Origin: a virus | Lineage: Duplodnaviria > Heunggongvirae > Uroviricota > Caudoviricetes | Direction: 5' to 3' (one strand) | Virus record (IMG/VR): IMGVR_UViG_2541047425_000010 | Length of the DNA: 18,707 bases | Shown: positions 15,001-18,000 of the stretch, one piece after another | How the letters are laid out: each line of letters starts with the position of its first letter | Position numbering within the stretch: the stretch's first letter is position 1 | Made by a program: the position numbers

Positions 15001-18000
15001 TTTCCACTCTCAAAGACAAAGACAATCGCAGCAAAAACGTAAACCCGAATCACACGGACGCCCCAGGTTACTGGCAGTACGGCAGCGATAGTTTTTAATT
15101 CACAAACAAAACCAGGCTTTAAATGCAGTAAACAACCGAAGCCTCAATACACTCTCTACACGGAGATATAAATATGAGTCAGCATCAGACAGATGTTAAT
15201 ATTTTCATTAACGACCTCGACGGCGGGGTATTTGTTAACAAACTTGGCGCGGTATTAAGTGAAGTTGCCTTTGGCGTAAACAGCACAAACAAAAAAGGAA
15301 AGGTATGTGTTGAATTCGAATTATCTTCACTTGATGAAAATCGCGTATCAGTTTCCCATAAACTAAAATTCACACGCCCGACAATGCGTGGTAGTAAATC
15401 AGAAGAAGACACAACTAACACCCCGATGTTTGTAAATAAAGGTGGTGAGCTTACTTTGTTCCAGAAAGACCAGGGACAGCTTTTCGATAAACAGGGTCAA
15501 CATGACGCTGTTTTACGCTGAATAATCCCCGCCTTAAAACGCTCGCGCATTATCCCCAAATCCATAAATTAAAGGTAAATATACATGTCTCAGTTAGATA
15601 GCAATGCCATTAAAGAAATTGTAAAACTCACCACTACTGCTTTTTCTGGTGAAAATTTGCCGCTTACGGAATGCCCTGTTGCGTTATTGCCGGACAATGT
15701 AAATATCGAAAGTCTGGAACGATTCATGACAGAACGTTTTCGTTTCCGTGGAGTCATGACCACAACCAGTATTGATGACTTTGTTGAATACAGCAAAGGG
15801 TATGCCGATGAGCACTCCCGCTGCTTCATTAACGCGGAAACGATGAAAGCAGTCACTGTGTTCAATATCGGCACTCTGGAGCAACCTGGACACGCTGACA
15901 ACAAGGCACTGCTGGAACTGAAAGCCACATCACCATATCGCGCATTGCGTGACGTTGACGGCAAAAAACAACTCCAGAAGTCTCTCGCTGAATGGCTGGA
16001 AGACTGGGCCGACTTCCTCACAGCCTATGACAGCGACGGTAATGTGCTGGATATCAAACAGGCTATCTCTGCTGTCCGTCGTCTTACCATCGATGCAAAA
16101 CGCAGTGCTGAATATGAAGAGCAAAACTTCAGCGGTAGCCGCTCAGTCATGGAGTCCGTGGAGGCTAAAAGCAAAGAAATCATGCCTGCCACTTTCCGCT
16201 TTGAATGCATCCCATACGAGGGCCTGGGCAACAGGGAATTCACGCTGCGATTAAGCATTCTGACAAGCGAACAGCCTGTTCTGGTGCTACGTATCGTGCG
16301 TGTTGAAGCTGCGGAAGAAGAAATTGCCAAAGAGTTCCGTGACCTGCTGAAAGAGCGTTTCGAAGAAGAAGATATCTTAACCTTCATCGGCACGTTCTCA
16401 GTGTGATGAAATCTGTGACAGGGACGTCACGACATATCGCTCATATTTCACGAGAAAATACACAGTTCTTGGAGGGTATACTATGCAATTTAAAGATTTA
16501 CCAGAGGATATTCAGAAAATAGCTGCGGATACGCTTAAAGCCCATTTATCGGTGCTTGATTTAACAAAGGAACCAAAGGCGAATCTGGAAAATATATCCC
16601 GTAACGTGCGAGATGTTTTTGTCGGGCTGTATGCTTATGACAATGAAAAGCACGAGGAACATATTCAAAATGGTTGCATTAATAAATGTCAACAAAATAT
16701 CAAACTTCCTGTTGCTGATAAAACAGAGCAGAAAACAGATGTATTAGTATTCTGGAATACCGTTGAGGCTATCGCCAGGAGCACGATGTTGGAGTTTAAC
16801 AACATCAATCATTCCGGGATCGACACTCATCAATCATCACATCGTGAGGGGTTTTCCATTCTTCTAACTCTGTTACAAGAGCAAGGCGAATATCCTCAGC
16901 CGACATCAAACGATACTGAGCAATAGTCTATTCTCGTACGCTGCAACGTGAGGTCGTACCCCGGACACGGGTAAACATCCGGCAATTCCAGCTTACCACC
17001 TATTTAACCCCCTCCCCGTAACGAGACGAAGAAATGAGCACTCATCATGTTGTGAGTTTTTCAGGCGGTCGGACATCGGCGTACCTCGTCCACCTTATGG
17101 AGCAACGCAGAAAAGCTGGTGAAAACGTTCATTACATACTCATGGATACGGGATGTGAACACCCGCTGACGTACCGGTTTATTCGGGAGGTTGTGAAGTT
17201 CTGGGATATTCCGCTAACCGTGTTGCAGGTCGATATAAATCCAGAGCTTGGGCAGCCAAATGGTTATACGGAATGGGAACCAAAGGATATTCAGACGCGA
17301 ATGCCGGTGCTTAAACCGTTTATGGACATGGTAAAAAAATATGGCACGCCATACATCGGCGGCGCGTTCTGCACTGACAGATTAAAACTCACCCCCTTCA
17401 TAAAATACTGCGATGACCATTTCGGACAAGGGAACTACATCACGTGGCTGGGTATTCGTGCAGACGAACCCCGTAGGCTGAAACCGAAACCGGGCGTCCG
17501 GTATCTTGCCGAACTGTCAGATTTTGATAAGTCGGATGTTATCCGGTGGTGGCGAAAACAACCTTTTGATTTGCAAATCCCGGAGCACCTCGGGAACTGT
17601 GTTTTCTGCATCAAAAAGTCAACGCAAAAGCTGGGGCTTGCATGTAAAGACGAACCTGGTCTGATGCGGGTTTTTAATGAACTGGTTACAGGCAAACACG
17701 TCAGGGATGGTCATCGCAGAACAGGTAAAGACGTTATGTACCGTGGTCACCTGACGCTTGACGGGATTGCCAGGATGTATGCCGACAGCGACTACAGCAA
17801 TTTGTATCAAGCGATGGTGCTGGCCAAGCGGTTTGATACTGGTTCGTGTTCCGAATCATGTGAAATCTGGGGTGACCAATTGGAGTTGAAATTCGAAGAG
17901 GTAGTGGCATGACAATCGTAAAAACCCATACCGGCATTGTGATCACCAAAGACGGCCCGCAGGTAAAAAAACTTCACCAGACAGAGCGGATGTGGGTCGT

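Follow-up and report, generated by a model that had tools for sequence, protein, structure and literature searches.

Lambda NinC and its orthologue in an Stx2 prophage: a predicted PP-loop enzyme with a possible counter-defence role on phage DNA

The DNA analysed here, called the window in the following, is a stretch of 18,707 nucleotides (nt) from a virus of the Caudoviricetes (IMG/VR record IMGVR_UViG_2541047425_000010). The gene under study, located at 17034..17912 on the plus strand, is of the ninC type and encodes a protein of 292 amino acids (aa) from the PAPS-reductase-like clade of PP-loop ATP pyrophosphatases. We tentatively favour the reading that NinC is an iron-sulfur (Fe-S) PP-loop enzyme which puts sulfur on phage DNA as a counter-defence. 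Taken as a whole, this reading is quite possible without being probable; its broader part, that NinC acts on DNA as a counter-defence, is more likely than the whole, and phosphorothioation as the actual chemistry, its most specific part, ranks below the whole. Fusions of NinC to DNA methyltransferases together with a published result from Vibrio phages turn the function of NinC into a concrete question for lambda.

Window NinC and lambda NinC (NP_040635, orf-290) are identical at 229 of 288 residues (80%) in an alignment free of gaps. The match to PHROG 424 has an E value of 2e-92, and copies with 100% identity are found in Shiga-toxin (Stx) phage records, where they are labelled NinC or PAPS reductase. 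Judged by sequence comparison, the window gene is the Stx-phage orthologue of lambda ninC. The original prediction had presented it without a name and implicitly as novel; in fact the lambda ninC family is well known, and membership in it is already annotated in public records. Both proteins have the same length and all conserved motifs in common, and both are products of accessory early genes. In contrast, their positions differ: lambda ninC has its place between ninB and ninD, within the rightward nin region, whereas window ninC belongs to the leftward early operon and has a DUF2303/147-aa gene pair on one side and ea22 on the other, with ninB and ninG elsewhere in the window. Lambda still forms plaques after deletion of the nin region, and knock-down by CRISPR interference with Q supplied in trans scores ninC as non-essential (PMC10695390). 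Going by the reference list of that paper, the sequence of the nin region dates from the early 1980s, and ninC has stood unexplained ever since (PMC10695390). Our literature search on NinC yielded dispensability data only and no assigned function; a Thermus phage paper from 2024 counts the PAPS-reductase homologue of lambda among those proteins of mobile elements which 'deserve further investigation' (PMC11437467).

The open reading frame (ORF) starts with ATG, is intact and is the single long ORF of its stretch. Its product begins with MSTHHVVSFSGGRTSAYLV, has the PP-loop at S10-G11-G12-R13-T14-S15 (codons 17061..17078, +) and ends with TGSCSESCEIWG. It is certainly a genuine gene and no chance frame, as the sequence relatives indicate, because it matches both PHROG 424 and Pfam PAPS_reduct and has 5024 homologues in a large protein collection; an exhaustive search returned 1530 cluster representatives. 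As is usual for a coding region, shadow ORFs of 63-99 aa overlap ninC on the minus strand. In the RefSeq record of phage PA2 (NC_028449, gp24) the start of ninC is placed 63 nt downstream at the internal Met22, leaving a protein of 271 aa from which the PP-loop is removed; the annotated copy spans 18098-18913 of locus L001, and the stretch left out corresponds to window positions 17034-17096. This looks like an annotation error. With respect to the family alignment, 17034 is the real start, because the first 21 residues carry the most conserved motif of the family.

Conservation across the family was read from two alignments, A2 with 38 sequences, the shallower one, and A4 with 36 members reaching down to 27-33% identity with window NinC. 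Invariant in A4 were S10, G12, S15, T39, G40, E42, C113, K118, G140, R142, D144, E145, R148, Y157, G187, N188, C189, K195, C272 and C276, and conserved to at least 90% were G11, C192, K199 and E277. C113, K118, C189 and C276 were invariant in A2 as well, in which C272 reached at least 90%. The resulting family signature reads SGGxTS ... DTGxEH ... CTxxxK ... GxRxDExxR ... GNCxxCxKK ... CxESCE. Five cysteines are thereby kept family-wide at 27-33% identity: C113 in the motif FCTDRLK (codon 17370..17372, +), the first conserved cysteine and a candidate Fe-S ligand; C189 and C192 of the CxxC pair C189-V-F-C192 within LGNCVFCIKK (codons 17598..17609, +); and C272 and C276, a dyad in the flexible C-terminal tail within C272-S-E-S-C276-E277 (codons 17847..17864, +). 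Since the ATP loop, the acidic and basic residues and the five cysteines are strictly kept, the alignments speak in favour of a functional enzyme and against a structural mimic. The 292-aa ORF with an N-terminal SGGRTS loop and the CxxC-like pair, both named in the original prediction, were thus recovered from the ORF listing and the sequence; the identity with lambda ninC, the conserved C113 and the C-terminal dyad go beyond it. DndC is a PP-loop enzyme with a 4Fe-4S cluster on three cysteines and a sulfur-accepting cysteine dyad (PMC10853773), and by analogy the three cysteines and the separate dyad of NinC resemble this arrangement numerically.

Two departures from the common layout were observed among the homologues. 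In P0020 (294 aa, 20 contigs) the first ~230 NinC residues are joined to a DUF551 domain and the C-terminal cysteine dyad is lost; this chimera is probably a recombination product of neighbouring accessory genes. Furthermore, P0124, P0130, P0137-P0140 and others (330-360 aa) match window NinC in two stretches with a break near residue 150, which implies, on the sequence level, that a sizeable sub-lineage carries ~50-60 additional residues inserted behind the GxRxDE element.

The AlphaFold2 model of window NinC, built with 38 homologues, has a mean predicted local distance difference test score (pLDDT) of 86.4 and a predicted template modelling score of 0.84; residues 266-292 have a pLDDT below 50 and are predicted to be disordered. 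In the model the SGGRTS loop follows the strand 4-8, C113 is located at the start of helix 112-130, and residues 197-267 form an extra helical region. The loop typical of the superfamily (SGGxDS type after the first beta strand) is therefore present, with T in place of the usual D. A Foldseek search against the PDB gave the PAPS reductase CysH (6vpu, E = 3e-5) and an APS reductase (2goy) as top matches, followed by NAD synthetase, LarE, GMP synthetase, TtuA and MnmA; the values in the fold-search list are 12.1 for APS reductase, 12.0 for [4Fe-4S] LarE, 11.8 for CysH, 11.7 for NcsA, 11.6 for TilS and 11.4 for TtuA. With Pfam, the confident model and the fold searches in agreement, the PP-loop and PAPS-reductase-like assignment made beforehand is borne out, and at the level of the model a PP-loop ATP-pyrophosphatase fold, with a Rossmann-like alpha/beta/alpha core superposable on solved members, is established. 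As far as the model goes, the fold by itself does not tell the substrate.

Among the curated family models, PAPS_reduct (PF01507), the only Pfam family above its cut-off, scored 34.4 bits against a cut-off of 22.5 and was matched over profile positions 2-66 of 175. The scores and cut-offs of the specific families were 16.1 and 165.1 for cysH (TIGR00434), 12.6 and 254.2 for PAPS reductase (TIGR02057), 12.3 and 235.3 for APS_reductase (TIGR02055), 22.6 and 154 for NF002537, 15.5 and 290.4 for DndC (TIGR03183), 13.6 and 93.6 for the TilS N-terminal domain (TIGR02432), 14.8 and 606 for TilS (NF007942), and 11.4 and 22 for QueC (PF06508). With the scores for all these specific families far below the cut-offs, NinC was rejected as a true PAPS reductase, DndC, TilS or QueC. 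The comparison with such enzymes that the original prediction had suggested thus succeeds for the fold, which is shared with CysH and APS reductase, but not for the curated families of DndC, PAPS reductase and QueC. A sequence search of the PDB with the protein and the family profile gave no alignment beyond the first 70-95 residues, and these aligned to PAPS/APS reductases. Of the solved structures, CysH (PDB 2goy, 6vpu, 1sur) comes closest, sharing the Pfam family and a cysteine on a disordered C-terminal tail. The differences lie in the complete ATP-type PP-loop of NinC, in its extra helical region and in its C-terminus. In the alignment SSSFGIQ of CysH stands against SFSGGRTS of NinC; therefore, by this sequence comparison, NinC keeps an ATP-type loop, whereas true PAPS reductases have lost theirs. 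ECG[LI]H is the C-terminal catalytic-cysteine motif of CysH, and on reading the sequence ECGLH is absent from the C-terminus of NinC.

A scan with the 5027 models of the PADLOC defence-system collection unveiled a remote kinship to DNA phosphorothioation enzymes. The best match of window NinC was SspD (E = 2.4e-14, 51.7 bits), with residues 4-148 aligned to model positions 1-121 of 277; the SspD model carries no curated threshold. The sole further matches were weak, namely DndC (6e-4, 17 bits) and BrxP of type 4 BREX (6.5e-4). All 10 distant family members examined (10/10) match SspD over model positions ~3-208 of 277, a stretch which includes the first cysteine and GNCxxCxKK and leaves out the C-terminal dyad. 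The relation between NinC and SspD reads as remote homology of the sequences, not as membership. In keeping with this, NinC differs from these systems in several respects: its length falls far short of the 447-481 positions of the DndC models and the 779 positions of the BrxP model, its gene belongs to the invader instead of the defender, and it comes without desulfurase, DndD/E or SspB/C partners. None of sspA, sspB and sspC was present in the window or in the neighbour tally described below. As no dndA/B/C/D/E genes lie in the window or within two genes of NinC in the 39 lineages of that tally, and the TIGR03183 score is that given above, NinC was rejected as a DndC member as well. A tblastn search of plasmids with a distant family member returned NinC-family and generic PAPS-reductase genes only, and no SspD or DndC. 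Taken together, NinC would work most like SspD and DndC, going by sequence likeness, yet it does not read as a member of either family.

The second line of evidence comes from fusions. NinC is followed by a Dam domain (PF05869) in P0088, P0109, P0079, P0121, P0127 and P0158, preceded by Dam in P0125 and P0126, and joined to a D12 N6-adenine methyltransferase (PF02086) in P0128. A C5-cytosine methyltransferase, NinC and Dam are combined in one ORF of 968 aa (L053:4576-7482, +), which from its domain content appears to be a polyvalent DNA-modification protein. Dam is fused to NinC in 8 of the 80 viral loci and is located immediately upstream, with overlapping stop and start, in 4 more. Because the fusions occur in both orders and involve three methyltransferase families, the sequences indicate that NinC may share the role of orphan methyltransferases, that is, altering the element's own DNA against restriction.

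For the neighbour tally, grouping at 90% identity reduced the 80 viral loci to 39 lineages, and the scan took in the two genes to either side of NinC. Recurring neighbours were NinG (6 lineages), NinB (4) and Ea22 (3), followed by Dam (3) and C5 methyltransferases (2). No conserved protein partner of NinC was found in these lineages; the neighbours are ordinary nin, replication and recombination genes, and ParB was absent from them. Of 50,697 phage records, 585 contain a protein-level relative of NinC, and 341 of these are Vibrio phages; close nucleotide copies of ninC (at least 80% identity) are present in 552 of 5426 complete E. coli genomes (~10%). The family is also present on E. coli phage-plasmids. 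Among plasmid records with a NinC-family match, 145 of 257 were typed as conjugative; in Acinetobacter baumannii, MOBF conjugative plasmids (~70-78 kb) carry a NinC-family gene (L084:6001-6774, +) with an N-6 DNA methylase 1.2 kb downstream (L084:8015-8791, +) and genes for H-NS and a thermonuclease upstream.

The third line of evidence is genetic and was published for vibriophages. Piel et al. compared two sister podoviruses of Vibrio crassostreae and found that only p0018 and p0019 were specific to phages infecting the Dnd-armed host; p0018 of Vibrio phage 44E38.1 encodes a 479-aa PAPS-Dam fusion, and p0019 a protein of unknown function (bioRxiv 10.1101/2021.05.05.442762). When p0018 and p0019 were moved into the sister phage, it grew on the Dnd+ host (bioRxiv 10.1101/2021.05.05.442762). 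The sister phage had possessed a 96%-identical stand-alone Dam beforehand (bioRxiv 10.1101/2021.05.05.442762), and Dam is therefore not what changed. In our searches p0018 corresponds to P0088, whose N-terminal domain is 56% identical to window NinC over 281 aa and has the PP-loop, all cysteines, every conserved motif and the CSESCE tail in common with it; its gene lies in a nin-type block beside ninB and ninG. In contrast to window NinC, which is a stand-alone protein, p0018 carries a C-terminal Dam domain and was tested jointly with p0019.

Several points weigh against the proposal that NinC puts sulfur on phage DNA, the weightiest being the missing partner proteins, the want of a reported mark on lambda DNA and the two genes involved in the only experiment. 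No chemistry has been demonstrated for any member of the NinC family; nor are we aware that a phosphorothioate or any other unusual mark has been reported for lambda DNA, and literature searches found none. As the swap moved two genes, p0018 and p0019, the anti-Dnd effect is not pinned to the NinC domain, and p0019 lacks a homologue both in the window and among the 80 viral loci. At 52 bits, the match to SspD is a remote one, and it covers the N-terminal half of window NinC only. Modification by Dnd or Ssp depends on partners, and of these DndD/E, SspB/C and a cysteine desulfurase are missing both in the window and among the two genes on each side of NinC in the 39 lineages; the partner genes which the original prediction had proposed to look for beside homologues did not appear. 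Finally, a methyltransferase is fused to NinC or lies within two genes of it in only about one quarter of the lineages.

On the favoured reading, the action of NinC can be sketched as follows. C113, C189 and C192 would hold a [4Fe-4S] cluster, and the C272/C276 dyad on the mobile tail would carry sulfur delivered by a host cysteine desulfurase. NinC would then spend ATP on activating a position of the phage DNA and install sulfur there, giving a phosphorothioate-type or related mark. DNA marked in this manner could escape Dnd/Ssp-type defences that police such marks, and possibly other nucleases. In functional terms, ninC would then stand beside the orphan DNA methyltransferases repeatedly fused to it, as a gene which is not essential and serves counter-defence. 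The proposal made beforehand, a role in nucleic-acid modification or anti-restriction, is favoured in this general form by the methyltransferase fusions, the homology to SspD and DndC and the anti-Dnd swap. Its QueC/deazapurine and tRNA options found no support, with QueC and TilS scores below the cut-offs and no partner genes present.

If NinC marks phage DNA or disarms phosphorothioate-based immunity, it would represent a new class of counter-defence enzyme; a counter-defence role would bear on the host range of Shiga-toxin phages, and lambda genetics would offer a direct test bed. A bolder version, which we regard as doubtful, holds that NinC is a self-sufficient phage writer of a DNA sulfur mark, either phosphorothioate or thio-base, needing only ATP and the general cysteine desulfurase of the host. 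In that case lambda, many Stx phages, Vibrio phages and conjugative plasmids would carry a DNA modification so far unseen, the mark would disguise DNA from Dnd/Ssp-type and other nucleases, and the fused methyltransferase domains would act as targeting modules.

Among the other explanations, one keeps DNA as the substrate and drops sulfur: NinC might, for example, use ATP to amidate or aminoacylate a base, while the fused or adjacent methyltransferase-like domain would recognise the site and flip the base. Adenylation of a carbonyl or carboxylate, followed by attack of nitrogen on it, is common among PP-loop enzymes; TilS, GMP synthetase, NAD synthetase and QueC work in this manner, and all four of them are in the fold list of NinC; the tight linkage to N6-adenine methyltransferases would fit equally. 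However, five conserved cysteines typify sulfur or redox chemistry and not amidation, NinC has neither a glutamine-amidotransferase nor an amino-acid-ligase as a fused or adjacent partner, and the homology is to SspD and DndC. We consider this explanation unlikely.

Modification of RNA, most likely of tRNA by thiolation or in a lysidine-like manner, could tune translation or shield tRNAs from anticodon nucleases. A PP-loop combined with an Fe-S cluster liganded by cysteines is the design of TtuA, NcsA and TtcA, and tRNA genes are carried by related Stx phages. Against this, the TilS models score far below cut-off and the 292-aa protein is a single domain without an extra RNA-binding domain. 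Furthermore, all recurrent fusion partners are DNA methyltransferases, the defence hidden Markov models matched are those of DNA phosphorothioation enzymes only, and the published phenotype concerns a DNA-directed defence. An RNA substrate, permitted by the fold yet unsupported by the context, is distinctly unlikely in our view.

A non-catalytic DndC/SspD mimic that binds and blocks host Dnd/Ssp components as a decoy would likewise be remotely homologous to SspD and DndC, and would likewise fit the anti-Dnd phenotype seen with a homologue. A mere decoy would need neither an ATP loop nor acidic and basic active-site residues nor cysteines, yet all of these are kept at 27-33% identity, and the family is widespread among phages whose hosts rarely carry Dnd; this renders the decoy very unlikely. 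That NinC is an assimilatory PAPS/APS reductase, an auxiliary metabolic gene product boosting sulfate assimilation of the host during infection, is scarcely credible: the Pfam match, the database names and a cysteine pattern with a cysteine on a flexible C-terminal tail resembling APS reductase (by motif positions, not by alignment) speak for it, but the cysH, PAPS_reductase and APS_reductase cut-offs are missed by a wide margin, only the N-terminal ~70-95 residues align to CysH, the loop is a full SGGRTS instead of SSSFGIQ, the C-terminus is CSESCE and not ECGLH, and the fusions are to DNA methyltransferases and not to sulfur-metabolism genes.

The genomic setting of ninC could be derived from the last 3.7 kb of the window, which are 99.9% identical to Stx2 phages such as PA2, VT2phi_272 and phi346 and to O157 prophages. 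This comparison places ninC in the leftward early operon of an Stx2 prophage. In PA2 the genes follow each other on the same strand in the order cI, a methyltransferase-endonuclease pair, rha, kil, gam, recT, exo, ssb, a 115-aa gene, DUF2303/YfdQ, a 147-aa gene, ninC, two small genes, ea22 and, further on, int. Correspondingly, ninC comes after cI, kil, gam, recT, exo and ssb and before ea22 and int, one strand being used throughout, and the placement in an accessory early-left region given in the original prediction is correct. Directly upstream of ninC the window contains the 115-aa gene (15174-15521), DUF2303/YfdQ (15585-16406) and the 147-aa gene (16483-16926), all on the plus strand; the product of the last has no Pfam match, and none of the three recurs as a NinC neighbour in the other lineages. 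Downstream, an ORF of 67 aa (17909..18112, +), hypothetical gp23 in phage PA2, overlaps the ninC stop with its ATG (ATGA), and from this overlap the two are probably co-translated; a Pfam search with its product gave no match. A promoter and terminator scan of the sequence adjoining ninC gave no signal above shuffled background.

Two other parts of the window deserve mention. Directly downstream of cI a restriction-modification pair (8051-9520, + and 9517-10470, +) encodes an Eco57I-type N6-adenine methylase (Pfam PF07669) and an endonuclease of the BsuBI/PstI family; from its gene content it looks like a prophage-borne defence or lysogenic-conversion module. The left end of the window carries the gene of an LpxR-like outer-membrane protein (707-1666, +) and that of a NinI-like metallophosphatase (1878-2543, -); phage PA2 differs at this end, having Q, tRNA genes and stx in the corresponding place.

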